A stretch of DNA of 64,000 nt. It comes from Candidatus Saccharimonadia bacterium. Its GTDB lineage: Bacteria > Patescibacteriota > Saccharimonadia > UBA4664. The notes beneath the pieces were generated by a model. The model was not told the DNA's origin and made no database searches. It was given only the letters and a program-made list of their open reading frames with translations. Position numbers and translations under genes: made by a program. Position 1 is the first letter of the stretch; each line of letters opens with the position of its first letter. Below, piece by piece: positions 20,268 through 41,017 of this stretch. The stretch lies in contig DATKIP010000093.1 in assembly GCA_035544015.1 (NCBI GenBank), forward strand, positions 1,156 to 65,155, in the 5' to 3' direction.

Positions 20268-20298
20268 CAAAAACGGGCCCAAAAAGGCCCGTTTTTTG
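20268..20298 (+). terminator. Rho-independent terminator after the ABC operon
   Basis: AAAACGGGCC-CAAAAA-GGCCCGTTTTTTG. Confidence 0.55.
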
Positions 20299-20355
20299 TA
20301 TCAAATTAGCGCTTCCCAGCGCCATCTCCAAGCCGCTTGTGCTAAACTTCATCCT

Positions 20356-23454: not shown

Positions 23455-23455
23455 C

Positions 23456-24054: not shown

Positions 24055-25191
24055 GTGAATCGTTTTCAACGAGCGGCTGCGGCGCTGGGTTTGCGCCTGC
24101 CGAAGCCGCCAAACCAGCCATTGCGCTATGTCGTAACTCTGGCCTTGTTGGCCTCGGTGCTCCAATCGGGCACCGCCATCGCGGCCGGCAGCCTCAGCAG
24201 CGCTTCGGTGGCGCTGAGCGACCCGCGGCCGAGCGCCACGAGCAGCTACACCTTCACCGGCTCATCGGTCGACGGCGCCACGGCCGTGAAATGCGTGAAG
24301 GCCGTGTGGGCCACGACCGCGGCAGGCGACACTGCGCCCACAGGCTTTAGCGGCACCGCCGGCACGGTCGCCGCCGCATCGTCCACGCTCATCAACTCGT
24401 CCGCCACCGGCTGGAGCCTGGCCCGCAGCGACGGCACCAGCTCCAGCGGCCAAAACAATGTCTTCCAATACACCAATGCCACCGGCGTCACGCCATCGAC
24501 CACTACCGGCGCCACCTTCGTGCTAGCCGGCCTCGTTAATAGCTCGCTTGGCGACACCACCTACTACCTCCAGCTGCGCACCTTTGCTAATGCCGACTGC
24601 GCTTCAAGCCCGATCGACAACGCCACCATCCCGTTCATCAACACCGCCGGCTCCACCGTGTCTCTATCAGTCGACCAATCGCTCACGTTCACCGTCGACG
24701 CCGTTACCGCCAGCACGTCGTGCGACGGCACCACCACCACGCAGGGCTCCACTGCCACCACCATTCCGTTCGGTACCATCACTTCCTCGAGCAACGGCGT
24801 GGTCTGCCAAGACCTCCAGGCCGCCACCAACGCCGCCGGTGGTTACACCATTTACGCCCGCTACACCGCCGCCCCCACCAACGCGCTCGCCCAAACCATC
24901 GCCGACCACGCCGCCACCAACGCCAGCCCCACCACCTTTAGCGTCCCCGGCACCGAGGCCTACGGCTACACCTCGAGCGACAGCAGCCTCGGCACCGGTA
25001 CCGCCGCCCGCTTCACCACTGGCGGCCAAAAGTGGGCGGCCATGACCACCACCAACGCCGAGCTCGCTTACGAGTCCGTCGGCGTCGCCACTACTACGTA
25101 TCATATCGGCCATCAGGTGGGTATCTCGGGCACCACCTTTCCGGGCACCTACACCACCACCATTATTTACACCTGCGTGCCGGTTTACTAG
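24055..25191 (+). CDS. secreted WxL-like surface protein, paralog 2
   Basis: GTG start after AAGGGAG. WSL motif. C-terminus TYTTTIIYTCVPVY. Confidence 0.6.
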   Translation: MNRFQRAAAALGLRLPKPPNQPLRYVVTLALLASVLQSGTAIAAGSLSSASVALSDPRPSATSSYTFTGSSVDGATAVKCVKAVWATTAAGDTAPTGFSGTAGTVAAASSTLINSSATGWSLARSDGTSSSGQNNVFQYTNATGVTPSTTTGATFVLAGLVNSSLGDTTYYLQLRTFANADCASSPIDNATIPFINTAGSTVSLSVDQSLTFTVDAVTASTSCDGTTTTQGSTATTIPFGTITSSSNGVVCQDLQAATNAAGGYTIYARYTAAPTNALAQTIADHAATNASPTTFSVPGTEAYGYTSSDSSLGTGTAARFTTGGQKWAAMTTTNAELAYESVGVATTTYHIGHQVGISGTTFPGTYTTTIIYTCVPVY

Positions 25192-25289: not shown

Positions 25290-26414
25290 GTGAAAAGCCG
25301 CATCATCCGAGCGGCGGCCGCGTTGGGAGTACGCGGACCGCGAAATATCAAAGCTAAGCTGTCAAAATTTGCAGCTGTCCTGATTGCCCTCATGGGGCTG
25401 AGCCTCAACGCTGGCGTCGCCAACGCCGCGACGCTGTCGAGCGCCAAAGTCGCCTTGAGCGATCCACGCCCCAGCACCACCGCGGTCAACTACACGTTTA
25501 CCGGTTCCACAGTCACCACCTCGCTCATTAAATGCATCAAGCTGGTATTTGCCACCACCGCGACCGGTTCCACTGTGCCTACCAACTTCGATTCCAGCGT
25601 TGGCGCCGTGGCTCTCAACAATGCCGGTACCAACTACGTACCAACTCCAGCTTCGTGGAGCTTGAGCAAAGTCACCAATGGTACGCTCCTGCTCACCAAC
25701 GCCACCGGTGAAACCCCCGCCTCGGCCAGCGCTCGCACCATTTCGTACGACGGCATCACCAACTCGTCCGTCGCCGACACCGCCTACTATCTGCGGGTGA
25801 GCACCTTCAACAACATCGACTGCGCCACCAGCCCGGTGGATAACGGCTCAGTTCAGTTCATCAACACCAACGGTTCCACGCTCTCGCTCACCGTCGACAA
25901 CACCCTGAGCTTCACCGTCAACGCCGTAGCCGGCAGCCAGGGCTGCGACGGCACCACTACGACGCAGGCCTCCACCGCCACCACCATTCCCTTCGGCACC
26001 ATCACCTCCGGCGCCAACGGCATCGTCTGCCAAGACCTCACCGCCGCCACCAACGCCACCAATGGGTATACCATTTACGGCCGCTACACCGCCAAGCCCA
26101 CTAATGCCCTGAGCCAGACCATCGCCGACTTCACCGGCTCCAACACCACCCCGACCACCTTTAGCGCCGCCGGCACCGAGGCCTACGGCTACACCACCAA
26201 CGACTCCACGCTGGGCACCGGCTCGGCCAACCGCTTCACCAACGGCGGCCAAAAGTGGGCCGCCATGACAAGCACCAACGCTGAGCTCGCCTACGAAGCC
26301 GCCGGCATCACGAGCACCACCTACCGCATCGGGCACCAGGCGGGCGTGAGTCTCACGACCTTCCCAGGAACCTACACCACCACCGTCATCTACACTTGCA
26401 CTCCGATCTATTAG
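25290..26414 (+). CDS. secreted WxL-like surface protein, paralog 3
   Basis: WSL motif. C-terminus TYTTTVIYTCTPIY. Long blocks identical to paralogs 1 and 2 (for example SSNGVVCQDLQAATNA, AGTEAYGYT). Confidence 0.6.
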   Translation: MKSRIIRAAAALGVRGPRNIKAKLSKFAAVLIALMGLSLNAGVANAATLSSAKVALSDPRPSTTAVNYTFTGSTVTTSLIKCIKLVFATTATGSTVPTNFDSSVGAVALNNAGTNYVPTPASWSLSKVTNGTLLLTNATGETPASASARTISYDGITNSSVADTAYYLRVSTFNNIDCATSPVDNGSVQFINTNGSTLSLTVDNTLSFTVNAVAGSQGCDGTTTTQASTATTIPFGTITSGANGIVCQDLTAATNATNGYTIYGRYTAKPTNALSQTIADFTGSNTTPTTFSAAGTEAYGYTTNDSTLGTGSANRFTNGGQKWAAMTSTNAELAYEAAGITSTTYRIGHQAGVSLTTFPGTYTTTVIYTCTPIY

Positions 26415-26432: not shown

Positions 26433-27389
26433 ATGAAGGCTGTTTCCTTACTCCGCCGAACCCTCCTTACTCTCACCGCCGGCGCCGCAGGAGCAGCCTT
26501 CGCCGTGTCGGCACCGGCCCATGCCGCCACGTCGCAGAGCTACCAAATCTCACCGCCCACTGCCAATTACACCGGCAACAAGGGCGGCATCCAGAGCGGC
26601 ACCATCAAAGTCACCAACCTCACCGGCGCGCCGCTCTCGGTGCGCACTGGCAAAGAAAATTTTGTCGCTAAAGGCGAAGAGGGCGAGATCGAACTCGTTG
26701 ACGCCGCCGACCCGCTCTACTCGCTAGCGCCGTGGTTTTCGCTCAACGCCGCGCAGCTCGATATCCCCGCGCTGGGCACCAAAGAGCTCCATTACACTAT
26801 CGCCATCCCCACCGATGCCGAGCCGGGTGGCCGCTACGGCTCTATCGTGTTTAGCACCATTCCGCCCAAGCTCGCCAGCGGCGAATCCGGCGCCGCGGTG
26901 CAGCAGACGATCGCCGGCATCGTGTTTATGCGCATCGACGGCCAGGCCAACGAACAGCTCGAGGTAGCCTCATTTGGCGCCGAAAAGAGCTTTTACGACT
27001 ACGGGCCGGTCAAATTCCTCACTCGCATAAAAAATACCGGTACGGTTCATGAAAAAGCCACTGGCACCATCACCATCAAAAATATGCTTGGATTCAAAGT
27101 CGCCACCATTCCCCTCGACGAACACTTTGTGATCCCGGGTGCCATCCGCCGGCTGCACAATGACTGGCCTACCGGAGGTCAACACCCATTCCTGTTTGGC
27201 CGCTATACCGCCACGCTCGACGCCAAATACGGCAACGGCCAGACGCTTACCGCCTCCGCCAGCTTCACGGTGGTTCCATGGAAGCTTGTCGCTCTCATCG
27301 TGGTCGGATTGCTCGCAGTCATCGTGATCTTCTGGCGCGGCCGCCCGCGCTTCGCCCGCGCCTTCCGTATCCTAGCCGGCCGCGAATAG
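26433..27389 (+). CDS. DUF916-like cell-surface protein (signal peptide, C-terminal TM anchor with basic tail), predicted partner of WxL-like proteins
   Basis: 318 aa. Motifs SYQISPPTANYTG and GGRYGSIVFSTIPP are shared with the genes at 33257 and 51784. C-terminus WKLVALIVVGLLAVIVIFWRGRPR. TAAGG SD. Confidence 0.55.
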   Translation: MKAVSLLRRTLLTLTAGAAGAAFAVSAPAHAATSQSYQISPPTANYTGNKGGIQSGTIKVTNLTGAPLSVRTGKENFVAKGEEGEIELVDAADPLYSLAPWFSLNAAQLDIPALGTKELHYTIAIPTDAEPGGRYGSIVFSTIPPKLASGESGAAVQQTIAGIVFMRIDGQANEQLEVASFGAEKSFYDYGPVKFLTRIKNTGTVHEKATGTITIKNMLGFKVATIPLDEHFVIPGAIRRLHNDWPTGGQHPFLFGRYTATLDAKYGNGQTLTASASFTVVPWKLVALIVVGLLAVIVIFWRGRPRFARAFRILAGRE

Positions 27390-27431
27390 CACCGCCCTTG
27401 GCGCTTATATACTTAACGCACCAAGGGCGAT

Positions 27432-27935
27432 GTGATGGCGCGAGTTAAAAAGTTATTTTTACGCTATAGACGTATAATTGAGCATATGAAATCGCTTTAT
27501 AGGCTCTATAGGCTGACCCGCTATATTGATAATGAATCCCATCGCATAGATAAAAAATTCCCAGATGAGCTGAGGAATAACAACATACGGCGACGACCTA
27601 AAAAGAATGACATACTCAAGGGGTACAGCAGGAAGCATAAGCGCCTATCCTATGAAAAAATCGCTGATTTATTTGAGCAAGCCGAGAACGAGGGTTATAT
27701 CGAAGTCAATTCTTATGATTTAGTGAGGGTGGGTATCCCGCGAGGCACGGACTTTTTAGACTTTTTTATCATACCGTGGGGCTTGCTGAATCCTATGTTA
27801 GATAAATATGGCAAATTGGCATCTCTAATCATAGGCTTAGTAGGTGGGGTCGTAGTCACTATCGCTACCACTTTAGCTATTTGGACAGCGAAGTCATTAT
27901 TGAGTCTAGTTCAATATCTAATTAGACATCTCTAG
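27432..27935 (+). CDS. hypothetical protein, basic N-terminal region and C-terminal TM (AT-rich island)
   Basis: 167 aa in a low-GC region. Confidence 0.4.
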   Translation: MMARVKKLFLRYRRIIEHMKSLYRLYRLTRYIDNESHRIDKKFPDELRNNNIRRRPKKNDILKGYSRKHKRLSYEKIADLFEQAENEGYIEVNSYDLVRVGIPRGTDFLDFFIIPWGLLNPMLDKYGKLASLIIGLVGGVVVTIATTLAIWTAKSLLSLVQYLIRHL

Positions 27936-28008
27936 CTTAGAGCTCGTGTACTACTTTTTTTTCGGCTTCCGCTCCGGCTCCGTCTTTACGATCTTCTCCA
28001 TTGCCTTA

Positions 28009-28236
28009 TCAAATGACATCGGCAGGCTGAACGGCTGCTGGCGAGTCTGCTTCTCGGGCTGGGGCTTCGGCTGTTTCTCTGGCTTCATGATGTTTATTAT
28101 ACCTCGTTGTGTTTCTGATCGATTCTCGTTCCCGTCTTCTCTTGCGACTATGTTCACGCTCTACCACCACGAAAACTATAGGCAAGATGATGGGAAGTAG
28201 GATGATACCCAGAATGAGCTTTAATGCAGCTTTCAT
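28009..28236 (-). CDS. small membrane protein (AT-rich island)
   Basis: The start was chosen at the ATG preceded by AAGGAAG (reverse complement of about 28240-28247). A TM helix ALKLILGIILLPIILPIVFVVV. An overlapping alternative-frame ORF makes this uncertain. Confidence 0.35.
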   Translation of the reverse strand: MKAALKLILGIILLPIILPIVFVVVEREHSRKRRRERESIRNTTRYNKHHEARETAEAPAREADSPAAVQPADVI

Positions 28237-28687
28237 AACTTCCTTTGTGGTCCCCAAATAAAAAGGCGGCCACCACTTAGTGCAAGTGTTGAGCCGCACA
28301 ACGAGTTTTTGCGCCCGCCATCGGTGATGACCGCCTTAGTTAGCGCAAAAACCCACAAGACTTGTGGGAAAACTTGTTATACGGCTCAACGAAGTAATTA
28401 TGGCTGGTTATTGAGGCTCAGTAAAGCCCCAGAGAATAAATACCGAGTTCTGGACAACCCGCTCAAGCTCTGATATGCCTGTAGGTAAGGTTCGCTCCGA
28501 GATCACAATTGCGGCAACCGAATGTTAGTAGCTCGGGAGACCATGTCTCCACGACAGCATTTTGTTGCTACATATTTCCGGTGCGTTCCTACCACTTAAA
28601 CGGAGGAACCAGAAATGGGAATACTCGATTGGCCGCCTAGACGGCCCGAGCTTCCCCCGATAAAGACAACCTAGTCGGGGTATAGTA

Positions 28688-28713
28688 AAGGCCCCGTAAG
28701 GGGCCTTTACTTA
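28688..28713 (+). terminator. perfect 11-bp hairpin GTAAAGGCCCC-GTAA-GGGGCCTTTAC inside a roughly 580-nt non-coding stretch
   Basis: Read directly from the sequence; followed by TTACAAATTAATTG. Confidence 0.35.
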
Positions 28714-28818
28714 CAAATTAATTGCCGTATTGAGTACGGAAATTAATTGTACGCTACCGAGATCACGCCCTTATCATAGCGGGTTGTTTTGAGGTGCGCA
28801 AGAACCGTTATTTTGCGA

Positions 28819-29193
28819 TTAGCTCCTTCGCGGTGGTTGCGGAACTGCAAGAGGCTCACTAGCTTCAATGCGTGCAGCCTCCACCGCTTCTCTCCCAGCT
28901 TTCTCACTGCGTATCTTCTCCCTAGCAGCTTCTTCTTTGCGCACTTTCAGCTCAATGGTGTCACCAGCAGACGCGTAGTAGAGTATGGCCAAAAATCCAA
29001 AAATGAATCCCGACAATATACCTCCAGCAGTACTACGACCTCGCTGACCCGCCATGACACCACAAATGATGGCGAAGAATACACCTATGATAATAAGAAT
29101 ACCGAGCAGTCCAGCCAGGGCTGTTCCGGCGGCTGCACCGACTTCTGTGGCTGCTTGTGCAGTTGCTGGATCGAGAGTTGGGGTTGGGGTCAT
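28819..29193 (-). CDS. small membrane protein, hypothetical
   Basis: 124 aa. SD AAGGAG 6 nt before the ATG on the reverse strand. TM region GLLGILIIIGVFFAIICGV. Confidence 0.5.
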   Translation of the reverse strand: MTPTPTLDPATAQAATEVGAAAGTALAGLLGILIIIGVFFAIICGVMAGQRGRSTAGGILSGFIFGFLAILYYASAGDTIELKVRKEEAAREKIRSEKAGREAVEAARIEASEPLAVPQPPRRS

Positions 29194-29405
29194 GGGGATC
29201 TCCTTTAGATCGGAAACCGCCTCAATAAAATAAAGAGGCGACTGCTAGTTAGTAGAGGTGTTGACGCTCCACAACGGATTTGGACCCGCTTTCGCTAACA
29301 GCCGCCTGTATGAGTCCAAAAAATGCCACGGTGTGGCTAATTCCGATGTAGAGCGTCAACAAGGTAATCATACCTGATATAATAACTGCCTAAAAGGGAC
29401 CAGAT

Positions 29406-30347
29406 ATGCCTGACAATGAAGAGTTGCCTTTGCCCAGTGAGGGCGAAAGCAAAATCGACCTTTTCAAAGGCAAAGAAATCCGTAAAGTTTTACATGAAGG
29501 CGAGTGGTGGTTCGTTGTCGTAGATGTTATTGCTAGTCTCACTGGATCGATTGATCCAACTGGTTATGTAAAGGACATGCGGCGTCGAGATAAGGGTCTA
29601 GCAGAAGGGTGGGGGCAAATTGCCACCCCCCTTCGCATTGAAACCTCTAAAGGGCCACAAAACATCAATTGTGCCAATATTGAGGGGCTTTTCCGTATAA
29701 TGCAGTCCGTGCCCTCTCCAAAGGCAGAGCCATTCAAAAAATGGCTGGCAAAGTCTGCATTTGAACGGTTACAGGAAATCGACAATCCCGAGCTGGCAGT
29801 CCAACGTGCCATTGCTCTTTATCGGGCAAAGGGTTATCCCGATGGGTGGATCGATACTAGAATTAAAAATAAGGTCAGTCGAGAAATCCTGACTAAAGAA
29901 TGGTTTGAGCGCGGCGTACAGGATATGGATTACGCAATCTTAACAGATGCAATTTCCATTGAGACTTTCGGATTGAGCACGGCCAAGCACAAAGAGCTCA
30001 AAGGACTAAAAAGCCAGAGTCTCCGCGATAATATGACGCCAATTGAGCTAACCCTTACTACATTGGGTGAGCAATCCGCCACCGAGATAACCCGTGCTAA
30101 TAATGCTCAGGGGAAATGGCAAAATCTTACGGCGGCAAAAGCTGGTGGTAAAATTGCTGGAAACGCAAGAATGCAACTTGAGGAAGCAACAGGGCAAACG
30201 GTTGTATCTGATCAAAGCTATCTTACTGAACGTCAAAGACAAAATAATGCCCAAATTGAGGCTACAATTAATGATACTCTTAGCCGGATATTACGCCTTC
30301 CGGGGACTGACCCGCTTGAAGCAGGCGAGATTGGTACAGTCAGCTAG
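29406..30347 (+). CDS. Bro-N domain protein / DNA-damage-inducible protein D (DinD)-like
   Basis: The N-terminal region LFKGKEIRKVLHEGEWWFVVVDV resembles the Bro-N fold. Its stop overlaps the IS transposase stop, so it is probably 3'-truncated by the IS. Confidence 0.6.
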   Translation: MPDNEELPLPSEGESKIDLFKGKEIRKVLHEGEWWFVVVDVIASLTGSIDPTGYVKDMRRRDKGLAEGWGQIATPLRIETSKGPQNINCANIEGLFRIMQSVPSPKAEPFKKWLAKSAFERLQEIDNPELAVQRAIALYRAKGYPDGWIDTRIKNKVSREILTKEWFERGVQDMDYAILTDAISIETFGLSTAKHKELKGLKSQSLRDNMTPIELTLTTLGEQSATEITRANNAQGKWQNLTAAKAGGKIAGNARMQLEEATGQTVVSDQSYLTERQRQNNAQIEATINDTLSRILRLPGTDPLEAGEIGTVS

Positions 30348-31237
30348 CCAATAAGTCCCTTATACGTCAGCCGTTTCCCGCTCGCATATCCGAACCAGTT
30401 CTCGAATCGCTCACCATCCTTCATCTCGCGGGTATTGTACCGATAACCAAACTCCCCCGCGTACTTCGCCATATGCTTCCGGCTTACTCCAATATAGATG
30501 GCGTCGATACCAGACTTAAGATGGCTCCAGTACCCCTCAATTGTGTTCGTGTGCACCGTTCCGACCACGTATTCTTTGGTGTGATTTACCGAGTAATGCG
30601 GATAGCCCATAGCAGTGAGAGCGTGATACGCCTTGAGCTGGTCAGTCATAACCGTAGCCCTTGGGTCAATGTCTTTGATGATGTGAGGCAGAAGATAGGG
30701 AGCTGACCCCTTGGTCACAATATGAGTCTTGATGTGGCCTTTGCGCTCCACAAGTCCCATCACGGGTGTCTTGTTCGTAGACTTGTTACTGGCGTTCATG
30801 CCAACGCCCTTTTGATGGCCGCCAATATAGGTTTCATCTACTTCTACAATTCCATTTAGAAGTCTGTCACTTCCATCTAAAACCGCATGGCGGATACGCT
30901 GGAGCAGGAACCAGGCACTTTTCTGGGTAATGCCAAGATGTTTGCTCATCTGGATAGAGCTAACGCCTTTCTTGTGGGATGTAAGCAAATATATAGCCAA
31001 GAACCACTTCTGGAGGGGAAGACGAGACTCTTCAAAGATTGTGCCAATACGAGCCGAGAATTGTTTCATACAAGCCGTGCATTTGAATATCCGGCGAGAC
31101 TTGAGGGTGTAAACATCTAAGCAGCCGCAGTGGGGGCAAATAGGCTCACCATGCCAACGAGATTCAGCTAGATAGGCGTGGCAGGCATCTTCGTTGGGGA
31201 AGCGGTTGTAAAAGGCGATGAGATTGAGGGTTTCCAT
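30344..31237 (-). CDS. IS1595-family transposase (ISXO2-like, N-terminal zinc ribbon plus DDE)
   Basis: 297 aa. CPHCGC...CTAC zinc ribbon and the DDE region (...IVEVDETYIGG..., ...VMTDQLKAY..., ...NTIEGYWSHLK) are typical of IS1595. Confidence 0.85.
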   Translation of the reverse strand: METLNLIAFYNRFPNEDACHAYLAESRWHGEPICPHCGCLDVYTLKSRRIFKCTACMKQFSARIGTIFEESRLPLQKWFLAIYLLTSHKKGVSSIQMSKHLGITQKSAWFLLQRIRHAVLDGSDRLLNGIVEVDETYIGGHQKGVGMNASNKSTNKTPVMGLVERKGHIKTHIVTKGSAPYLLPHIIKDIDPRATVMTDQLKAYHALTAMGYPHYSVNHTKEYVVGTVHTNTIEGYWSHLKSGIDAIYIGVSRKHMAKYAGEFGYRYNTREMKDGERFENWFGYASGKRLTYKGLIG

Positions 31238-31285
31238 ACATCAAGCTTAGTGCAGGACATTGGTTGCGTCAAGTATATAAGCGCC
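30348..31285. mobile_element. IS1595-family insertion sequence (boundaries approximate)
   Basis: Imperfect terminal inverted repeats: CTTATACGTCAGCC near 30359 against GGTTGCGTCAAGTATATAAG near 31262. The element would be about 0.94 kb. Confidence 0.45.
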
Positions 31286-31361
31286 CCGCCCTTGCATGTT
31301 CGCAAAATGTTCGGTATATTGGCATCGCCAGCCAGTATATAGTAGACATCAAGGAGCGCCG

Positions 31362-31844
31362 ATGGCCACCACAGAATTTACCCTCGAAGATATTAGGCAA
31401 GTTGTCCGCGAGGAGTCCGACGCCTCGTTCGACCGCAAATTTGGCCCAGCGTTTGATGAAGCCTTTACGCGTTCCTTCGGGCCGGCGTTTGACGCGGCTT
31501 TCGCGCGGTCCTTCCAGCCAGCTTTTGACACGGCTTTTAGTGCGGCCTTCAAGCCCGCGTTTGATGCGGCTTTTGAACCGGCATTCAATGCGGCCTTCAA
31601 GCCGGCCTTCGACGGAGCCTTCGATCAGGCTTTTGAGCCGGCATTTATGGGAGTCTTCGAGCCCTTCGCCAATGCCATCAAAGAAGATTTCAATCGTATC
31701 GACGAGCGCTTCGATCATCTCGAAACCAAAGTCGAGTCCATCGCCCGCGACGTTGACGAGCTCAAGGCCGACATGAAGAGTATTAAGCGTATTGTCGGGC
31801 AACATTCCAAGGAAATTGTCGAGCTGCGCGCCCGCCTCGCGTAG
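31362..31844 (+). CDS. repeat-containing coiled-coil protein (nine tandem PAFD-x-AF heptads plus C-terminal coiled coil)
   Basis: FGPAFDEAFTRSFGPAFDAAFARSFQPAFDTAFSAAFKPAFDAAFEPAFNAAFKPAFDGAFDQAFEPAF... AAGGAG 5 nt before the ATG. Confidence 0.6.
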   Translation: MATTEFTLEDIRQVVREESDASFDRKFGPAFDEAFTRSFGPAFDAAFARSFQPAFDTAFSAAFKPAFDAAFEPAFNAAFKPAFDGAFDQAFEPAFMGVFEPFANAIKEDFNRIDERFDHLETKVESIARDVDELKADMKSIKRIVGQHSKEIVELRARLA

Positions 31845-31864
31845 TCCCCCGAGCCGCCGCCTGG

Positions 31865-31870: not shown

Positions 31871-31877
31871 TTTGCTA

Positions 31878-33260
31878 ATGCTAAAGCCTAAACGACACCT
31901 TGGCTCGATTGCAGCGGCCGCCCTGCTGCTGGCTCCCGCCGTCGCCATGCAACTCCTGCCGGCCGCCGCCTCGGCCGACCTGTTACAAAGCACGCACTTT
32001 CGGCTCGATCCGAATGTGGCCGACACCTTCGGCGGCGCCACCGGCTCGGCCTCATACCAGCTCACCGATGCCGGCGGTGAGGGAGCAGTGGGCTCGGGCG
32101 CTAGCCAGAGCTACAAACTCACCCAGGGTTATGTCAGCCAGCTGGCGCACTCGCTTTCGCTCTCGGTGCTGCCCGGCTCCACCTATGCCTACTGGCCGCT
32201 CGACACCGGCACCGGCACCGTCGCCTACGACGTCGGCACCACTGCCGACGACGGCACCCTCGTAGCCGCGCCGAGCTGGACGACCGGCATCGTGGGCCAA
32301 GGCGTCACGCTCAATGGCTCCAGTCAATATGTTTCTACCGCCACCTCGGTCGCCAATCCTACGACCTTCACGCTCGAAGTGTGGTTCAAATCCACGAGCT
32401 CCAACGGCGGCGAGCTCATGGGCCTGGGCAGCGCCCAAACCGGCTCCAGCGCCACCGTAGACCGCGTGCTGTACCTCGATAATGCTGGCCACATCGTGTT
32501 TGGCACCAAGCCGAGTGCCTTCAAAACCGTCGCCACCGCCTCTACCTACACCGACGGCTCGTGGCACCACGTGGCTGCCACGCTCGGCGCCACCGGGTTG
32601 CTGCTCTACGTGGATGGCCTGCGCCAGGGCACCGACGCCAGCACCACCACGGTGGCCAACTTCAGTGGCTACTGGCGCCTCGGCTTCGATAGCCTCGCCG
32701 GCTGGCCCTCGGCGCCCACGAGCAATTTCCTGGCCGGCACCATCGATGAAGCCCGCGTCTACACCCGCGCCCTGAGCGACGCCGAGATCAAAAACGACTA
32801 CACTGCCGGCGCCAACGCCCTCAAAGGCGCCTTCACGCTGCCCAACATCACCCCTGGCCAGTCCCAAACCTACTCAGCCGACGCGGTAGTGCGCACCGAC
32901 GCCGCCGGCTACGACCTTTACATGCAGGCGCTCACCCCACTCACCCACACCGACACCGTCACTACTATCCCCAATGTCTCCGGCACCATTGCCTCACCGG
33001 CCGCCTGGACCGAAGGCACCACGAAGGGCATTGGCTTCACGCTCACCGCCGGCACCTCCCTGGAAGGCAAATGGGGGACCAGTCCGGGTTACGCCTATGC
33101 CGGCCTGCCCAGCACCGCCACCGTTTACCACTCGCGCACCGGCCTCACCGCCGGTGTCCCCGAGCTCACCACTATCCAATACCGCGCCGACACCACCAGC
33201 AGCCAAAAGCAGGGCACCTACTCGGCTACCATTGTTTACACGGCGACCGTTCGGCCATGA
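31878..33260 (+). CDS. secreted LamG (concanavalin-A-like lectin) domain protein with WxL-like C-terminus
   Basis: Signal peptide. LamG-like core (...FTLEVWFKSTSSNGGELMGLG...GSWHHVAATLGATGLLLYVDG...ARVYTRALSDAEI). C-terminal tail QGTYSATIVYTATVRP. The track ORF starts at TTG 31872. Confidence 0.6.
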   Translation: MLKPKRHLGSIAAAALLLAPAVAMQLLPAAASADLLQSTHFRLDPNVADTFGGATGSASYQLTDAGGEGAVGSGASQSYKLTQGYVSQLAHSLSLSVLPGSTYAYWPLDTGTGTVAYDVGTTADDGTLVAAPSWTTGIVGQGVTLNGSSQYVSTATSVANPTTFTLEVWFKSTSSNGGELMGLGSAQTGSSATVDRVLYLDNAGHIVFGTKPSAFKTVATASTYTDGSWHHVAATLGATGLLLYVDGLRQGTDASTTTVANFSGYWRLGFDSLAGWPSAPTSNFLAGTIDEARVYTRALSDAEIKNDYTAGANALKGAFTLPNITPGQSQTYSADAVVRTDAAGYDLYMQALTPLTHTDTVTTIPNVSGTIASPAAWTEGTTKGIGFTLTAGTSLEGKWGTSPGYAYAGLPSTATVYHSRTGLTAGVPELTTIQYRADTTSSQKQGTYSATIVYTATVRP

Positions 33261-34141
33261 ATGCCCCATTGCGCCTGCTGCTGGTCAGCCTCACCCTGGC
33301 GACCGTAGGGCTCGCAATGCCCGCGCCGGCCCGCGCTGACGCCCCCGGTTTGCAAGCCAGCCCGCTCGAGTACATCGACACGCTCACCCCGGGCCATATC
33401 AAAAACGGTTACGTTGACGTTTCCAACCCCGGCGACGGATCCCTCGCCATCCGCACGAGCGTGCGCGGTTTTCGCCAAACCGGCACCGACGGCCGCCTCG
33501 AATTTTTCGACGACCCGGAGCTCATCGGCGGCATCAGCCTCGGCCTGAGCAGCTTTGAGCTAGGGCCCCGAGAAGCCGTGCGTGTGGTGTTTCACGTCGA
33601 CCCGTCCAAGCTCCCTGCCGGCGGTGTGTATGCCGCCCTCTTTTTCCAAACCGTCCCTCCGTCGCAATCTCCCAATAGCTCGTACGTAGCCGAAAGCGCC
33701 CGCATCGGCACCTTGCTCGAGCTCGTAAACGGCCCGGCCACGCCGCATCACGGCGCTGTCGCCAAACTCGATCTGCCGTTCCTGCAGCTCGGCCGCGGCC
33801 TCACCGGCACACTGCAGTATCAAAACACCGATCGTACGGCCCACCCCGTCGGCTACCGTCCGGCTCTCACGCTGAGCGTGCTGCCGTGGGCGGCTCACCC
33901 CAAGCTCGCCACCGGTCTCGTCCTGCCCAGCGCCACCCGTGAGTTCGCCATCGAGCGGCCAGGCTCATTTTTTGGCCTGTTACCCGTCACCATTACCGAC
34001 ACCGACACGCATCAAACCACCACGCGCTGGGTATTGGTGTGCACCGCGTGGTGCCAGTGGCTATTGCTGGTAATTGCCACCGCCCTCACGCTCGGAGTAG
34101 CGCGCAAAATCGGGCCCAGCCGGAGATCTACGTTAAAGTGA
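33257..34141 (+). CDS. DUF916-like cell-surface protein, second copy
   Basis: ATGA overlap with the upstream gene. Signal peptide. AGGVYAALFFQTVPP motif. C-terminal TM plus ARKIGPSRR tail. Confidence 0.55.
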   Translation: MNAPLRLLLVSLTLATVGLAMPAPARADAPGLQASPLEYIDTLTPGHIKNGYVDVSNPGDGSLAIRTSVRGFRQTGTDGRLEFFDDPELIGGISLGLSSFELGPREAVRVVFHVDPSKLPAGGVYAALFFQTVPPSQSPNSSYVAESARIGTLLELVNGPATPHHGAVAKLDLPFLQLGRGLTGTLQYQNTDRTAHPVGYRPALTLSVLPWAAHPKLATGLVLPSATREFAIERPGSFFGLLPVTITDTDTHQTTTRWVLVCTAWCQWLLLVIATALTLGVARKIGPSRRSTLK

Positions 34142-34499: not shown

Positions 34500-34916
34500 A
34501 TGCCAGAGTACGCCACCATCCAAGACGTTCGCACGATCATTGCCGAGGCCCTCGTGCCGGTAACGGAGCGCCTCAATAAAATAGACGGCCGGATCGATGA
34601 CGCGGACGGTCGGTTCGACAAAATAGATAACCGGTTCGACAAAATGGAGCTACGCCAAGACCGTATGCAAGTTAGCATTGACGATATCCAAAACAATTAC
34701 CGCGCCATACTAGTCCAAAACGAGGAGACCAACACAAAGCTCGATGCGATCCTCGAGTACGTTGCCGATGTCCCCGACCAAAACGCACGCATCGGCCGCC
34801 TCGAAGAAAACGCCGAACACGAAAAACTCAAGTCTGAGCTGGATCGCTCCCACATCGACGCCCTGCGCAGTGACATCGAGGCGCACCGGCGTCGCCCTCA
34901 CCCCACCAATTCATAA
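34500..34916 (+). CDS. coiled-coil protein with RFDK(I/M) repeats, related in architecture to 31362..31844
   Basis: Shared N-terminal pattern T(L/I)(E/Q)D(I/V)R and C-terminal heptad-like repeats DGRIDDADGRFDKIDNRFDKMELRQDRM. GGAGAG SD. Confidence 0.5.
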   Translation: MPEYATIQDVRTIIAEALVPVTERLNKIDGRIDDADGRFDKIDNRFDKMELRQDRMQVSIDDIQNNYRAILVQNEETNTKLDAILEYVADVPDQNARIGRLEENAEHEKLKSELDRSHIDALRSDIEAHRRRPHPTNS

Positions 34917-34990
34917 AAGGCTTACCGCAAGCCACAGTCTTGCCCAAACCATAAGCACGATGTTAAAATGCTTATGTAACAAAGGTTGTG

Positions 34991-37900
34991 ATGGAGTTAC
35001 GCCGCCGGCTTCGCATAGGGAGAATCATTCTCCTGAGCACAGCGGCTCAGCTCGTAGCGACTATTTTTGGCGTCTCCGCAATTTTGGCGCCCATGCCGGT
35101 ACAATCCGCCCAAACCGTTCCCTACATGGTGAACTTCCAGGGCCGCCTCACCGACAATTCCGGCAACATCTTGAGCGACGGCCTATACAACGTCAAATTT
35201 CGCCTCTGGACCCTGGCTTCGGGCGGTACCAACGCCTGGGAAGCCGACCGAGTGCGCGGCGCCTCCGACCACCGCATCCAGATCACAAATGGCCTCTTCA
35301 ACATCCAATTTGGCGACACTACGCTCGGCGATCCCGCGCTTGGCCCCACGCTGTTTAGCAGCGGCACCTACCCCCTGTATCTGGAGGTTGAGCTACCCAC
35401 TCCCGCCACCGCCACCTGCTCCACCAACGGCTGTGCGAGCTTCACCGAAGGCGCCATGACCCCGCGCCAGCCGCTCGCCTCCACGCCCTACGCCTTCAGC
35501 GCCGACACCCTCGACGGCCTCGATTCGGCCGCTTTTGGCCAGCTCTCGGCCAGTAACACCTTCACCAGCGCCAATATTTTTAGCCCCAGCTCCGGTGTCG
35601 CCATCACGATCAAACCCGCCGCCGCCACTCACTCGCTCGACGTCAAAGACTCAAGCAATGTAATCCAAGCCTACTTCGATGCCAGTGGTATTCTCAATGT
35701 TGGGCAAACCATTCAGGCCACCACCTCTACCGTCGATCTGGGGACGAGCGGCTCCACCTTCCGTACCGGGTACTTTGGCACGAGCGTCCAAACCCCCACG
35801 CTCAACGCCGCTACTTCCGGCGCCACCATCACCACCAACGCTGGCACCTTGCAGCGCACCTCCTCCGGCGGCCTCACTATCGATCTCAAAGACGCCGGCG
35901 CCACCACACTCACCGTCACCAACTCGGGCGGGGGAGTGGCAGGCATCAGTGCCACCGGCGGCCTCACCATCGGCACCGGCAGGGTCATCACTGTGGGCGC
36001 CACCGCCGGCACCGGCGTTACCTGCAGCTCTGGCCAAATCCTCGACGCCATCACCGTCGCCGGCGGTGTCGTCACTGGCGGCAGCTGCATCGCGGCCGGC
36101 GGCGGCGACAAATTCCTCGCCGCCTGGACCTCACAGCAGGCTACCACCGCCACCAACACCCAGACCACGGTGCAGTTCACCGGCGCCGCCAACTCCGCAC
36201 CGAGCTTCAATAATGGCACGCACGTGCTCACCCTGCCCTCGAATGCCTCCCGGCTACTCATAGAATCCAAGGCCGGCGGCGGTGGTGGTGGCTCAGTGGG
36301 CACCACGAGCGCCGTGAAGGCGGCCGGTGGTGGCGGCGAAGGCGGCTTGTCGCAGCTATTCGTCGGCGGCAGCCTGGCTGCCAACTATTATTTCAAAGTT
36401 GGCGGCGGCGGCGCGGGCGGCGCCTCAGGCGGCACCAACACCGGCACCACCGGGAGCTCCAGCTGCCTCGGCACCAACTCCGGCGACGCCTGCACCACGC
36501 CGGCGGTCAACGCGGTCGGCGGCACCGGCGGCACTGGGGTCACCACCGCCGTGCCCGCCACCGGCGGCGCGGGCGGAGCGGCCGGCTCGGGCGCCGGCGA
36601 CGTGAAGCTCTCCGGCGCGCCCGGCTGCACCAGCACCGCCACCGCCACCACGGCCATCGTCAGCGGCTGCGGTGGCGGCCAAGGCGGCGGCGCCAGCCAG
36701 GCCGGAGCCGCCGCTGCCGCAAACGGCATCGCCGGCACCTCGGGCGGCGGCGGGAGCGGCGGCATCCAGGGCACCGCCGCGGTCACCTCGCGCGCCGGCG
36801 GCAACGGCGGCGACGGCTACGTGAAGATCTCCGTCTACGTCACGGTCGCCGGCACCGGCAACCCCGCCACGCTCCAGTCCGCCTACGACAACGCCACCAA
36901 CCCCGAAATCACCCTCTCTGGCAACGGCCTCACCGTTCGCGACTCGTCCGGGGGGCTGGGCAGCAACCTGTTTGAGGTCCAGGACAACGCTGGCGCCACC
37001 ACCTATCTTGGCGTCACCACCTCCGGCATCACCACCAGCGGCACCGTCACCGCCAGCACTACCGGCACCATCAACGGCCTGTCCGTGAGCGCCGGCGCGC
37101 TTAGCGGCATCACCGGCTACACCCAAGCCTCGGGCACGTTTAGCCAAACCTACGCCACCGCCACCGCCGGCACCTCCGGCCAAGTTCTTGGCTTCTCCAA
37201 CACCAATGCCGGCGCGGGCGTCACCGTCCAGGGCACCAAAATCACCCCCAGCAACGCCACCCCCGGGTCCGGCACCAACACCCTCAACGTCCTCGACTTC
37301 GCCGCCGGCAACTCGCTTGGTGCCGGCGCGCTCACCAACGGCATCAACTTCGAATCCGCCACCGGCTACACCGCGTTCATCAACACCCCCACCTACAAGC
37401 TCGAATCCGACGGCGACCAAACCGCCGCCTTCACCGCCCTCGACGGCACCTCCACCGCCAACGGCGCCGGCACCAACGCCACCACCCTCATCCTCACTTC
37501 GGCCGCCAACTTCGACATCGGCAATTACGTGCAGGTCAACTCGGCCAACTGCGGCGGCACCGGCGTCAACCCGTGCTATGCCAAAATCACGGCCAAAGCC
37601 ACCAACACGCTCACCATCACCCCCGCGCTCACCTGGGCCAACGCCGCCGTCGTGAATGAATACCACCTGCCCGAAATCGGCGGCACCGACACCGCCCAAA
37701 CCCTCGCAGGCCGCTACGGCCGCGGCTACTTCATCGCCGGTGTCGCTACCGGCAACGGCACCACCTATTACAATGAGGACTCCATCGACTCCAGCCTCAC
37801 CTCGTTCAACCTGCTCACCTCGAACGTCACCACGCTCAATATCGGCACCGCCGCCACTACACTTGCCATTGGCTCGGCCAGCACCAGCGTCAGCGTTCCC

Positions 37901-39934
37901 GGTACGTTCACGGTTGCCGGCCAGTCCATCGTCAACGGTTCCGGCCAAATCAACGGAGCCCAAATCCAATCCGGCACCATCGCCAACGCCGCGCTCGCAA
38001 GCCCCAGCCTCACCGTCGCCGCCGGCACCGGGCTGAGCGGCGGCGGCAGCGTGGCGCTCGGTGCCGGCACTAGCCTCGCGGTGGTGTACGGCAGCTCGAG
38101 TACCTCGGCCGTCCGCGGCGACACCGCGCTCACGTGCCCGAGCGGCTCGGGCAACCTCTCGGGCGGCGGCACCGCCATTACGCTCGGTACCGGCGGCACG
38201 TGCGGCGCCATTACCATCTCAAATGCCCCCACCTTCACCACCAGCGTCACGAGCCCCACTATCAACGCTACCTCCGGTTTCCAGGCCAACGGCACCCCCG
38301 CGGTCGGCAGCACCTGCGGCGCCGGCGCGGCGATCACCGGCGCCACCTTCACCACCGGCATCCTCACGTCGGCCGGCACCTGCACCACCTTCCAGACCGC
38401 CGGCAGCTACCTCGTGCAAGCCCCGGCCTCTTCGGCCGCCAATACCGTCACCGCGCCCACCGGCGTGGTGGGCCTGAGCGTCAAAGGCACCACTGGCACC
38501 GCTGCGCACCTCCTAGATGTCTACAACTCGGCGGTCAGCCCCACCGTTCAATCGTTCTTCGATCTAAACGGCGCATTCAACACCGCCCAGGCCATCGTTG
38601 CCCCCACCAGCACCAACTCCATCAACGGCCTTGTCATCAACGCCGGTGCGCTCACCAGCGTCGGCAACATTACCGGCGCCGGCGCCGTCACGCTCCAGTC
38701 GGCTGCCGCCACAGCGCTCACCATCGATTCCGGCACCACCGGCGCCATCAACATCGGCACCGGCACCACGTCGGCCAAAACCATCACCATCGGCCCTAGC
38801 GCCACTAACACCAACGCCACCACCTACAACCTCGGCGTCAATACCGCCGGCACCCAAGACATCAACATCGGTTCCGCCGGCTCCGGTGACGCCGCCGCCG
38901 GCACTACCGTGAGCATCCAGGCCGGCACCACTGCCGGCACCGCGCTTATGCTCGGCACCAACGGCGCCGGCGGCATCACCATCGATTCCGGCACCACCGG
39001 CGCCATCAACATCGGCACCGGCGCCAATGCCAAAACACTCACGCTCGGCAACACCACCACCACGGCCGTCACCAACATCCTCGGCGGCGCCACCGGCGCT
39101 ATCAACATTGGTACCGTGGGCAGCGCGGCCACCGCCTCGGCGGTCCACGTCGCCGACACCAGCGGCAATGCCGTCCAAGGCGTCACCATCGGCTCCATCG
39201 GCAGCACCAGCAGCGCCACCACGCTCCAGGCCGGCGGCACGCTCACGCTCAAGGGCGCCAGCTCCTCCGCCACCGCCGTCCAGATCCAAACCGCCGCCGG
39301 CACCAACCTGCTCGTCTTCGACACCAGCGCCAGCCGCCTCACCGTCGGCGTGGTCGACGGTACCGGCACCTTGCTCGTCTTCGACTCCAAAAACACCACC
39401 GGCGACCCCACCGGCGTGGGCGGCGGCGAATACTACAACTCCAACAACAACAAATTCCGCTGTTTCCAAAACAGTGTTTGGCAAGATTGCATCTCCCACA
39501 CCGTCCTGCGGCTCGCCGCCGACGTCATCAACAACAACGCCACCGCCAACACCATGGCCGACGTCACCGGCCTCACGTGGAGCGTCACCTCCGGCACCCT
39601 CTACACCTTCAGCTGCACCATCTCGTACACCGCCGCTGCCACCACCACCGGGTCGAGGTGGTCCATCAACGGCCCGGCCACCCCAACCGCGCTGTTTTAC
39701 AAATCCCAATACTCACTCACTACAACCACCTACACCACCAACGACCCCGTAAACGCCTACGACAGCCCGGCCGCCTCCAGCGCCTCCTCGGCCGCCATCA
39801 CGGGCAACAACATCGCTACGGTCAGCGGGTTCATCCGCCCGTCCGCCAACGGCACCGTAGCACTGCGATTTGCCTCCGAGGTGTCGAGCTCGGCCATTAC
39901 CGCCAAAGCCGGCAGTACCTGCGAATACTGGTAG
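34991..39934 (+). CDS. giant Gly/Thr/Ala/Ser-rich secreted protein (1648 aa) with beta-helix-like internal repeats
   Basis: N-terminal signal-like segment. Repeated modules of roughly 80 aa (ITIDSGTTGAINIGTG occurs 3 times). C-terminal roughly 170-aa Cys-containing domain ending STCEYW. Confidence 0.65.
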   Translation: MELRRRLRIGRIILLSTAAQLVATIFGVSAILAPMPVQSAQTVPYMVNFQGRLTDNSGNILSDGLYNVKFRLWTLASGGTNAWEADRVRGASDHRIQITNGLFNIQFGDTTLGDPALGPTLFSSGTYPLYLEVELPTPATATCSTNGCASFTEGAMTPRQPLASTPYAFSADTLDGLDSAAFGQLSASNTFTSANIFSPSSGVAITIKPAAATHSLDVKDSSNVIQAYFDASGILNVGQTIQATTSTVDLGTSGSTFRTGYFGTSVQTPTLNAATSGATITTNAGTLQRTSSGGLTIDLKDAGATTLTVTNSGGGVAGISATGGLTIGTGRVITVGATAGTGVTCSSGQILDAITVAGGVVTGGSCIAAGGGDKFLAAWTSQQATTATNTQTTVQFTGAANSAPSFNNGTHVLTLPSNASRLLIESKAGGGGGGSVGTTSAVKAAGGGGEGGLSQLFVGGSLAANYYFKVGGGGAGGASGGTNTGTTGSSSCLGTNSGDACTTPAVNAVGGTGGTGVTTAVPATGGAGGAAGSGAGDVKLSGAPGCTSTATATTAIVSGCGGGQGGGASQAGAAAAANGIAGTSGGGGSGGIQGTAAVTSRAGGNGGDGYVKISVYVTVAGTGNPATLQSAYDNATNPEITLSGNGLTVRDSSGGLGSNLFEVQDNAGATTYLGVTTSGITTSGTVTASTTGTINGLSVSAGALSGITGYTQASGTFSQTYATATAGTSGQVLGFSNTNAGAGVTVQGTKITPSNATPGSGTNTLNVLDFAAGNSLGAGALTNGINFESATGYTAFINTPTYKLESDGDQTAAFTALDGTSTANGAGTNATTLILTSAANFDIGNYVQVNSANCGGTGVNPCYAKITAKATNTLTITPALTWANAAVVNEYHLPEIGGTDTAQTLAGRYGRGYFIAGVATGNGTTYYNEDSIDSSLTSFNLLTSNVTTLNIGTAATTLAIGSASTSVSVPGTFTVAGQSIVNGSGQINGAQIQSGTIANAALASPSLTVAAGTGLSGGGSVALGAGTSLAVVYGSSSTSAVRGDTALTCPSGSGNLSGGGTAITLGTGGTCGAITISNAPTFTTSVTSPTINATSGFQANGTPAVGSTCGAGAAITGATFTTGILTSAGTCTTFQTAGSYLVQAPASSAANTVTAPTGVVGLSVKGTTGTAAHLLDVYNSAVSPTVQSFFDLNGAFNTAQAIVAPTSTNSINGLVINAGALTSVGNITGAGAVTLQSAAATALTIDSGTTGAINIGTGTTSAKTITIGPSATNTNATTYNLGVNTAGTQDINIGSAGSGDAAAGTTVSIQAGTTAGTALMLGTNGAGGITIDSGTTGAINIGTGANAKTLTLGNTTTTAVTNILGGATGAINIGTVGSAATASAVHVADTSGNAVQGVTIGSIGSTSSATTLQAGGTLTLKGASSSATAVQIQTAAGTNLLVFDTSASRLTVGVVDGTGTLLVFDSKNTTGDPTGVGGGEYYNSNNNKFRCFQNSVWQDCISHTVLRLAADVINNNATANTMADVTGLTWSVTSGTLYTFSCTISYTAAATTTGSRWSINGPATPTALFYKSQYSLTTTTYTTNDPVNAYDSPAASSASSAAITGNNIATVSGFIRPSANGTVALRFASEVSSSAITAKAGSTCEYW

Positions 39935-39944
39935 GCCAGGCTCC

Positions 39945-40898
39945 TTAGCGCGCAGTCGATACCGAGCTATAGCTCGTTACCCAGTCGTAAATCTGCTTCG
40001 AGGTGTCGGCCATTTTTTGGCTTACCATTGCGTCATCGCCTTGCATCATCACGCACAGCAAATACGGCCGCTTCGGCACATAAAAAATACCACAATCACT
40101 ATGCACATTGGCCGGGTTAAATACCCCAATCTTGTGGGCTACCGTCACGTCCTTGGGGGTATATTTCGTGATCCGGCCAGTGAACGCAGTTTTTGACATC
40201 AGCGCCAAAATCGCCTGCGAACTATCGGGTTTGAGGTAGCACGACAAATACAAGCACTTCAGGATCGAAGAATACCCCCGCGAGCTAATCACCGCGTCGC
40301 CGGTCTTCGTGGTGTCGTGGTCGATGTCGAGCGCCGGGAGCGATTGCTCGTTGGCCGCCAGCATGCCCCGCGTCAGGCGGTTAATCAGCCGCGCGGCCGT
40401 ATTGTCGGATTGCGTGAGGGCCAAGTTGGCCGCCTCTTGCAGCGTCAGCGAGCCGCCCGCACCCTTTTTGTACAAATCGCCAAACGAGGCATCAAGGTCA
40501 TCGGCGGTTAGCTGCGCCGTGTCGCCCAGATGAATCCGGCCCAGCTCGACCGCGTGATACAGATCCATCACGAGCGGCAGCTTCACGAGCGACGCCGCGA
40601 TCAGCTCGCTTTCACCATTAATACGGATCGTCGTGCCCGTCGGCAAGTACTCAAAATAAAAACTAAACGGCTCCGTCTCGGTCCCAAATCGCTCGCGCAG
40701 CGCCGCCCGCAGCGAGGTGAAATTGATGATGGTGTCGTTGGGATTATCGGCAAACACCCGCCGCGCGAGCAGAGGATGCTGCGCCGATTCGCTCACCGTC
40801 TGAGCATTGTTCACCCCCACCATCGCCGCCCAGGCATACCCCAGGCCCAATATCGACAGCCCCACAACCCCCAGTAGCACATAACGTCGGTATTTCAT
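39945..40898 (-). CDS. serine hydrolase, class-A beta-lactamase / PBP-like
   Basis: Signal peptide. SxxK (ASLVK), SDN (TQSDNTAA) and K-x-G (AHKIG) motifs in the canonical order. The track ORF start is TTG 40931. Confidence 0.6.
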   Translation of the reverse strand: MKYRRYVLLGVVGLSILGLGYAWAAMVGVNNAQTVSESAQHPLLARRVFADNPNDTIINFTSLRAALRERFGTETEPFSFYFEYLPTGTTIRINGESELIAASLVKLPLVMDLYHAVELGRIHLGDTAQLTADDLDASFGDLYKKGAGGSLTLQEAANLALTQSDNTAARLINRLTRGMLAANEQSLPALDIDHDTTKTGDAVISSRGYSSILKCLYLSCYLKPDSSQAILALMSKTAFTGRITKYTPKDVTVAHKIGVFNPANVHSDCGIFYVPKRPYLLCVMMQGDDAMVSQKMADTSKQIYDWVTSYSSVSTAR

Positions 40899-41017
40899 GT
40901 CATCCCATGATAGCCCATTCGAGAGCCTCAATCCAGATGGTAGCCTTGAAAAACCCCGCCCTCTCGTGTATTATTTGCCAGTACCTTTTCCGATCAAGCA
41001 TAATGAAACTCGGTCGT

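Follow-up and report, generated by a model that had tools for sequence, protein, structure and literature searches.

The stretch analysed here, referred to throughout as the window, is 64,000 nucleotides of a Candidatus Saccharimonadia metagenome-assembled genome (MAG; contig DATKIP010000093.1). Its subject is a single very long gene on the plus strand, an open reading frame (ORF) that runs uninterrupted from a GTG at 34988 or an ATG at 34991 through to 39934. The product is probably an adhesin on the surface of a Patescibacterium, a mosaic built like a phage fibre. The gene, the signals ahead of it and the segments of its product are as follows.

34940 to 34969, plus strand: promoter-like site, TTGCCC, an 18-nt spacer and a TG-extended TAAAAT (a consensus match only)
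34981 to 34985, plus strand: AAAGG ribosome-binding-like motif, 5 nt ahead of the ATG, as read from the sequence
34991 to 39934, plus strand: complete coding sequence, 1647 aa plus stop, whose mature product is the fibre protein
34991 to 35113, plus strand: predicted Sec-type signal peptide, residues 1-41, with MELRRRLRIGR, a 23-residue hydrophobic helix and VQSA/Q
35114 to 35515, plus strand: N-terminal beta-rich domain, residues 42-175, NFQGRL...LYLEVELP...C143-C148...MTPRQ
35516 to 36106, plus strand: shaft segment 1, residues 176-372, G/T/A/S-rich with Cys345/Cys366, common to 17-42 homologues, modelled at low confidence
36107 to 36850, plus strand: internal TNF-like and glycine-rich (polyglycine-type) module, residues ~373-620, 26% Gly, ending in GGNGGDGYVKISVY
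36851 to 38677, plus strand: middle shaft, residues 621-1229, three Cys pairs, segments patchily common to other members
38678 to 39370, plus strand: distal shaft, residues 1230-1460, no Cys, 0.9% aromatic residues, ~10-residue periodicity, holding both TIDSGTTGAINIGTG blocks
39371 to 39496, plus strand: neck, residues 1461-1502, ...GDPTGVGGGEYYNSNNNKFRCFQNSVWQDC, predicted beta-hairpins (model strands 20-23, 28-33 and 36-41 of the piece) and a Cys1491-Cys1500 clasp
39497 to 39931, plus strand: tip, residues 1503-1647, predicted TNF/C1q-like jelly roll with Cys1542/Cys1644 and the C-terminal ...AKAGSTCEYW

The ORF is a real gene of the Saccharimonadia MAG. Its product is identical (100%) to VMT30_06550 (P0001), annotated as a 'hypothetical protein' in a Candidatus Saccharimonadia MAG. 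The GenBank version of this protein is 1613 aa long and begins at Met35, so that the signal peptide is omitted. The ATG at 34991 is the better start, because promoter-like and ribosome-binding-like motifs lie upstream of it and the signal peptide is conserved among homologues. A preliminary description of the locus had given a length of 1648 aa; the ORF itself is borne out, and the product has 1647 aa from the ATG, reaching 1648 only if the GTG codon or the stop is counted. The overlapping antisense ORFs, dismissed there as artefacts, need no separate explanation since the sense frame is validated by more than 100 homologues. Glycine, threonine, alanine and serine make up 56.1% of the protein (T 16.5, G 15.5, A 14.0, S 10.1), in keeping with the composition described earlier. 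There are 18 cysteines, or nine pairs, eight of them with a spacing of 5-22 residues, the exception being Cys1542/Cys1644. The three near-identical ITIDSGTTGAINIGTG blocks reported in the preliminary description resolve into two exact 15-aa TIDSGTTGAINIGTG copies, at residues 1244 and 1330, and a third that is only partial (GATGAINIGT, 71% DNA identity). The two exact copies correspond to a 51-nt pair (38718-38768 and 38976-39026, 98% identical), the only long near-identical DNA repeat in the gene. A DNA-level repeat comparison found no large tandem array in the gene, so that the risk of mis-assembly, a concern raised in advance, is small, and an assembly artefact was rejected on this ground. 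No paralogue of the fibre gene is present elsewhere in the window.

The whole protein gave no match in Pfam, NCBIfam or PHROGs (E ≤ 1) or among PDB sequences. Curated adhesin and S-layer families (SLH, autotransporter, LPXTG, RTX etc.) gave no significant match, and pieces of the protein gave only a weak match to Gly_rich_2. Membership of a known S-layer or adhesin family, which had been held out as a possible identity, was rejected in view of the zero matches in Pfam, NCBIfam and PHROGs. A C-terminal sorting motif is likewise lacking, the protein ending in ...STCEYW. A search of 5.8 billion proteins returned 103 relatives, mostly of 900-2,600 aa, and those that are named are Saccharibacteria or Patescibacteria. 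The contigs of the homologues are of a size expected for Patescibacteria. Their coverage of the query by the relatives' alignments is uneven: residues 1-200 are aligned in 74-95 relatives, the middle in ~10, residues 1400-1500 in 35-39 and the last 100 residues in only 2. Judged from these alignments, the family is made up of a conserved N-terminal part and a variable remainder.

The conserved part begins with the signal peptide. A basic n-region is followed by the 23-residue hydrophobic stretch and VQSA, with cleavage predicted between its last residue and the following Q; the segment forms a helix over residues 2-31 in an AlphaFold2 model of residues 1-700, built from a 33-sequence alignment. 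Homologues retain it, and an AxA site is seen in many of them. The signal-like segment noted previously is thus upheld. Conservation of the signal peptide and the nine cysteine pairs argue for export of the fibre. Behind the signal peptide lies a domain of ~134 aa common to ~95 of the 103 homologues, with near-invariant motifs NFQGRL, LYLEVELP, C143/C148 and MTPRQ. In the same model it is beta-rich from residue 42 to ~165, with a predicted local distance difference test score (pLDDT) of 65-86. No homologue of this N-domain was found in the PDB, nor was the domain found among 2.9 M viral contigs. It is presumed to be the cell-proximal base of the fibre.

At the opposite end the family behaves quite differently. 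The last 180 residues of the 103 relatives fall into 21 unrelated tip clusters, and among the alignment segments that extend past residue 1440, 31 of 45 stop at 1497-1508, directly after the second neck cysteine. In relatives the neck is followed by tips of ~90-450 aa, and the same tip as in the query occurs only in P0048. Of 54 long relatives 42 have the neck motif, against none of 60 viral-contig relatives, and representative tips of other clusters retain it. Read from these alignments, the neck, with its ...W-x-D-C end, is the junction at which tips are exchanged, a common recombination joint of the family. One tip cluster of 10 members carries Peptidase_S74 (PF13884; E 6.8e-14). The intramolecular chaperone looked for in the query is found in other N-domain family members; the query protein is of the non-S74 kind, with no PF13884 match. 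A side observation concerns the giant relatives P0225, P0232, P0237, P0246 and P0249 (2,377-3,899 aa), in which the neck and the first ~90-100 tip residues are matched 7-9 times per chain. Such repeated matches suggest that the neck, or the neck with a partial tip unit, can recur inside one fibre.

The C-terminal domain of roughly 170 aa that had been proposed is indeed a cysteine-containing end; as a single domain it does not hold, and is instead a neck of 42 aa and a tip of 145 aa. The neck and tip piece gave a confident all-beta structure model. In this monomer prediction the tip has the compact two-sheet jelly roll (~130-150 aa) that marks the TNF/C1q superfamily. Its best structural neighbours are TNF-like lectins (the top match being 9ib6), phage tail-fibre tips, BclA, C1q and the TNF-like tips of the mosaic adhesive trimer (MAT) proteins of Bdellovibrio, in agreement with the tail-fibre-like C-terminal domain first suggested. 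When the C-terminal piece was compared by Foldseek with predicted viral structures, 160 matches were obtained at E ≤ 1e-3, among them an annotated tail fibre of Streptomyces phage Lannister and proteins labelled collagen triple-helix repeat or lambda Stf repeat. Polar loops are conserved in the tip (DVTNNN, TTGSRW, YDxPAAS, RFASE).

The tip, which has no Pfam or PHROG annotation, belongs to a very large family made up mostly of ~280-aa proteins on viral contigs. A targeted search gave 2,152 relatives, and an exhaustive HMMER search of 1.84 billion representatives gave 2,828 cluster representatives at E ≤ 1e-3, of which 248 reach E ≤ 1e-30. The long members, of 600-3,900 aa, carry neck and tip at the extreme C-terminus and lie on contigs of 0.7-1.2 Mb, one of them named Patescibacteria; the NFQGRL N-domain is present in 27 of 57. 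Among species-representative genomes, full-length matches to neck and tip come mostly from Saccharibacteria, Saccharimonadales, Andersenbacteria and the 'Patescibacteria group', with weaker ones (34-44% identity) in Sphingobacterium and Rhizobium MAG contigs. Short members of ~280 aa are matched over the tip only and lie on viral contigs, 160 of them confirmed in IMG/VR. Neither tip nor N-domain matched any of 50,697 deposited phage genomes by tblastn, and the viral relatives are all uncultured. In 13 of the top 145 representatives the tip is fused to collagen G-X-Y repeats, an indirect sign that it may trimerise. N-termini with a SHxxxHxD-type motif, resembling those of tail fibres, occur in 6 of 60 viral tip proteins.

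The ~280-aa family is the only gene conserved over otherwise unrelated viral contigs (loci L001-L084, GC 45-62%). Two examples are given here.

L001, 10001 to 10858: ~280-aa viral protein
L004, 10001 to 10849: ~280-aa viral protein

These proteins have no Pfam or PHROGs annotation. Their neighbouring genes are not conserved between viral loci, and PHROG and Pfam scans of them are almost empty. Close to some of these proteins are genes for Baseplate_J, a sheath initiator, Gly_rich_2 and a GP4-type fibre adaptor (Gp77). At L004 a GP4-type fibre-tail adaptor (Gp77) is encoded two genes downstream, and at L001-L003 a Gp80/phrog_240 'head protein' lies directly upstream, with baseplate-type genes several kb away.

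Between base and neck the protein is a long shaft interrupted by one recognisable module. The first shaft segment has no Pfam match above noise, Pfam scans of pieces of the middle shaft found no recognisable domain, and the distal shaft is common to 17-39 homologues per 50-residue bin. Beta-helix-like repeats had been proposed for this region; the glycine-rich part (~373-620) is instead a glycine-rich, TNF-like module, and the shaft models at low confidence. The module region is modelled confidently at about 373-520 and 610-620. When a profile of the family alignment was compared with PDB sequences, gp33 was matched at E 6.4e-4 over profile positions 409-603, the match ending in a common GGxGYVxI strand. 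The glycine-rich piece alone aligned with the full profile of PF21722 Gly_rich_2, scoring 21.0 bits against a gathering threshold of 24.3; this match goes unseen in a whole-protein scan because of composition bias, and emerges only when the piece is scanned alone. The module is homologous to phage tail-fibre modules. By tblastn the piece found no match in the 50,697 deposited phage genomes. Comparable TNF-like and glycine-rich modules are present in cyanophage Pam3 gp24 (7ypx), the mycobacteriophage Bxb1 'tail wing brush' gp33 (9d93) and Salmonella phage S16 gp38. In Pam3 the fibre that bears this unit is a trimer, and the role assigned to the unit is recognition of the host receptor (PMC9608196). 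Unlike in these fibres, the module described here is internal to a chain of 1647 aa rather than terminal, and the chain has a signal peptide and is encoded by a chromosomal gene outside a virion module. The neighbourhood shows no gene recognisable as a chaperone like Pam3 gp25. The relation to the glycine-rich domain of ALK/LTK (7lrz, 7lir) is one of fold only, already noted for phage fibres (PMC9608196), those proteins being eukaryotic receptor ectodomains that bind cytokines.

The closest parallel is with the MAT proteins of Bdellovibrio bacteriovorus (Bd2439, Bd2734, Bd3182; Caulton et al. 2024, PMC10769870). In these proteins a signal peptide comes first and then a conserved, beta-rich N-domain of ~130 aa that has no PDB homologue; they form trimeric fibres, in S74 and non-S74 subfamilies, with swappable tips, some of which are sugar-binding and TNF-like (PMC10769870). 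The fibre described here shares with them the signal peptide (1-41) and conserved beta-rich N-domain (42-175), the great length, the division between S74 and other tips and the exchange of mosaic tips, with and without S74, on a common scaffold. Its owner, too, would live on other bacteria, a lifestyle assumed here from cultivated relatives. A number of differences are apparent. The organism belongs to Patescibacteria, with the envelope of that phylum, whereas Bdellovibrio is a diderm predator; the fibre has a TNF-like/glycine-rich module inside the chain and a neck junction clasped by cysteines; and its tip falls in a separate, very large, conserved and mostly viral sequence family. The family profile gave no match to a MAT N-domain in the PDB, which holds only C-terminal MAT fragments, and the fact that both N-domains are without a PDB homologue is merely compatible with kinship. 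The fibre is best described as working like a MAT fibre and not as a proven member of that family. It is probably trimeric, as the TNF-like fold, the collagen fusions of the tip and the trimeric structural homologues indirectly suggest. Of the known TNF/C1q-like trimeric tips, the query tip resembles Photorhabdus TNF-like lectin P (9ib6), the C-terminal domain of Chlamydia Pgp3 (4jdn), BclA/F-BclA, the C1q and cerebellin heads and the fibre tips of cyanophages A4 and A-1(L), from which it differs in having 6-14% sequence identity and a family of its own of ~2,800 clusters.

The surroundings of the gene are chromosomal, the window holding tRNAs, ABC transporter genes and an NAD-dependent DNA ligase-like ORF. 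The gene stands behind a cluster of secreted and membrane proteins, the features of which are listed here together with those of a segment that interrupts it.

22342 to 23454, plus strand: ~370-aa secreted paralogue
24055 to 25191, plus strand: ~370-aa secreted paralogue
25290 to 26414, plus strand: ~370-aa secreted paralogue
26433 to 27389, plus strand: 318-aa protein
~27400 to 31850: interruption (about 27.4-31.9 kb), including a weak NYN-like ORF
29406 to 30347: Bro-N gene within the interruption
30344 to 31237, minus strand: IS1595 transposase within the interruption
31296 to 31844: coiled-coil protein with FDxAF repeats within the interruption
31872 to 33260, plus strand: LamG_3 protein
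~33257 to 34141, plus strand: membrane protein

The three paralogues end in ...GTYTTTVIYTCTPxY, the LamG_3 protein has a C-terminal motif similar to theirs and the last protein of the cluster has a C-terminal membrane helix. Besides LamG_3, no Pfam family was recognised in the cluster. The same gene order is found ahead of the homologue P0004 in a 1.1-Mb genome (L085), at 50-65% identity, and it is relative to this genome that the cluster of the window is interrupted. The cluster proteins may be partners of the fibre, for example an anchor or a second appendage. The flanking genes noted in the preliminary description are confirmed: one is a coiled-coil ORF (34500-34916) that matches XhlA weakly, the other a minus-strand Beta-lactamase2 gene (39945-40931, E 6e-36). 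Both are absent from L085, as are the Bro-N and IS1595 genes, and the two flanking genes are therefore not conserved partners. Further upstream lies a Pro/Ala/Thr-rich ORF of 662 aa (20296-22284, plus strand) in a stretch of 67% GC, with hydrophobic segments and a PKD domain (E 2.4e-7), which may be another envelope protein. The ORF read in an alternative frame at 22748-23968 seems to be a Pro-rich artefact. GC content swings between 48% and 69% in adjacent 2-kb bins, the high bins coinciding with genes for G/A/T/P-rich secreted proteins (20-26 kb and 32-40 kb); amino-acid composition accounts for these swings better than foreign origin does.

Taken as an adhesin, the fibre could function in the following way. 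The Sec signal peptide would carry the chain across the membrane, and the conserved ~134-aa N-domain would stay by the cell and hold the fibre on an envelope component. Three chains would come together in a long shaft, rich in G/T/A/S, held by local disulfide staples and bearing two binding-type modules, the internal TNF-like/glycine-rich module, of the kind that serves receptor recognition in phages, and the distal tip. The TNF/C1q-like tip would probably be a lectin-like binder with sites between subunits, joined to the shaft by the Cys-clasped neck, and related genomes would keep base and neck and vary the tips. The fibre would most likely serve in host recognition, fastening a presumed epibiont to the surface of other bacteria. 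The TNF/C1q-like tip, the phage-type glycine-rich module and the interchangeable tips of the family all accord with the fibrous-adhesin or tail-fibre-like character first suggested. The ORF, the order of its domains, their folds and homologies, the mosaic make-up of the family and the viral occurrence of the tip are seen directly in the data; signal-peptide cleavage, the trimer, surface retention, ligand and role in host attachment are matters on which we infer.

Several observations weigh against the adhesin reading. In the model of residues 1-700 the shaft comes out poorly, with pLDDT below 50 over much of 165-370 and 520-700. Across 28 short representatives the tips have a mean identity of 57%, compared with 20% for the N-terminal halves fused to them, which reverses the usual pattern of phage receptor-binding proteins. 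A tip that binds a host-specific receptor does not normally look like this, and an invariant ligand, or a role in folding and trimerisation, would fit at least as well. The tip turns up in contigs binned to over 12 phyla, archaea among them, and every one of these is a MAG. The source organism is itself an uncultured MAG whose epibiotic lifestyle is assumed, and it is we who infer the trimer, the retention at the surface and the ligand.

The conservation of the tip keeps alive the possibility that it serves mainly as a folding and trimerisation nucleus, an assembly cap, any binding being left to the shaft or to the glycine-rich module. In C1q and BclA it is classically the C-terminal domain that nucleates the collagen triple helix, and in fibritin the foldon acts as such a cap; BclA and C1q are among the structural neighbours of the tip, which is also found C-terminal to collagen repeats in the 13 representatives mentioned above. 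Nucleation alone would find it hard to explain 21 tips behind the same neck, and the commonest viral form, at ~280 aa, has no long fibre to nucleate. Furthermore, structural comparison of the tip places a lectin (9ib6) first, and TNF-like tips of MAT proteins bind sugars (PMC10769870). Cap and binding roles are not exclusive, and we regard a tip that is chiefly a cap as unlikely. Less likely again is a non-adhesive envelope component, either S-layer-like or a spacer fibre in a protective coat. The protein is very large, exported and G/T/A/S-rich, and its gene lies in a conserved cluster whose other products are secreted and membrane proteins so far uncharacterised. It has, however, no S-layer or SLH-type domain and no family match, and a conserved base with variable tips, together with two modules homologous to receptor-binding parts of phages, speaks of recognition rather than of a lattice.

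A tail-fibre gene of a virion or tailocin, left by a prophage together with the Bro-N, IS1595 and XhlA-like genes as one element, was also considered. Two modules are held in common with phage fibre proteins, and the Bro-N gene, the transposase and the weak XhlA-like ORF all lie within 6 kb. Virion fibres are, however, normally without a Sec signal peptide, which this protein has. The neighbours tested gave no match to capsid, portal, terminase, sheath or baseplate families, the gene order recurs in L085 in the absence of the Bro-N, IS1595 and XhlA genes, and the N-domain was not found in the 2.9 M viral contigs. With its signal peptide, its chromosomal neighbours and its synteny with a second genome, the gene is most improbable as a prophage tail fibre, and this candidate was rejected. 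The preferred reading remains that of a phage-fibre-like mosaic adhesin on the surface of the cell.

A more speculative proposal, conceivable though doubtful, goes a step further. The 145-aa tip may be a 'grip' cassette traded horizontally between phages and Patescibacterial epibionts and recognising an invariant bacterial surface ligand, probably a glycan. In Patescibacteria the cassette would be plugged onto a cell-anchored fibre, with the Cys-clasped neck as a universal socket able to take at least 21 tips. If this were true, the host range of epibionts would be set and re-set by phage-style tip swapping, and the conservation of the tip would mark a widely available and so far undescribed receptor.

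Host finding and binding by the ultra-small Saccharibacteria and other Patescibacteria are described as largely unknown (PMC12206443). Genetics in cultivated Saccharibacteria, in which natural transformation works, has shown that these epibionts need several adhesins for epibiotic growth, and the present fibre family is not described in that work (PMC10633639). With its conserved base, defined swap junction and catalogue of tips, the family is a concrete and widespread candidate for the means of gripping a host. It also brings to light a TNF-like family of ~2,800 clusters, mostly on viral contigs, that is very large, lacks annotation and is unusually conserved. Tips can be expressed alone and screened on cells or glycan arrays, making the prediction of host range testable for uncultured lineages. 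The idea of a bacterial cell with phage-fibre-like adhesins would thus be extended from Bdellovibrio to an unrelated phylum.

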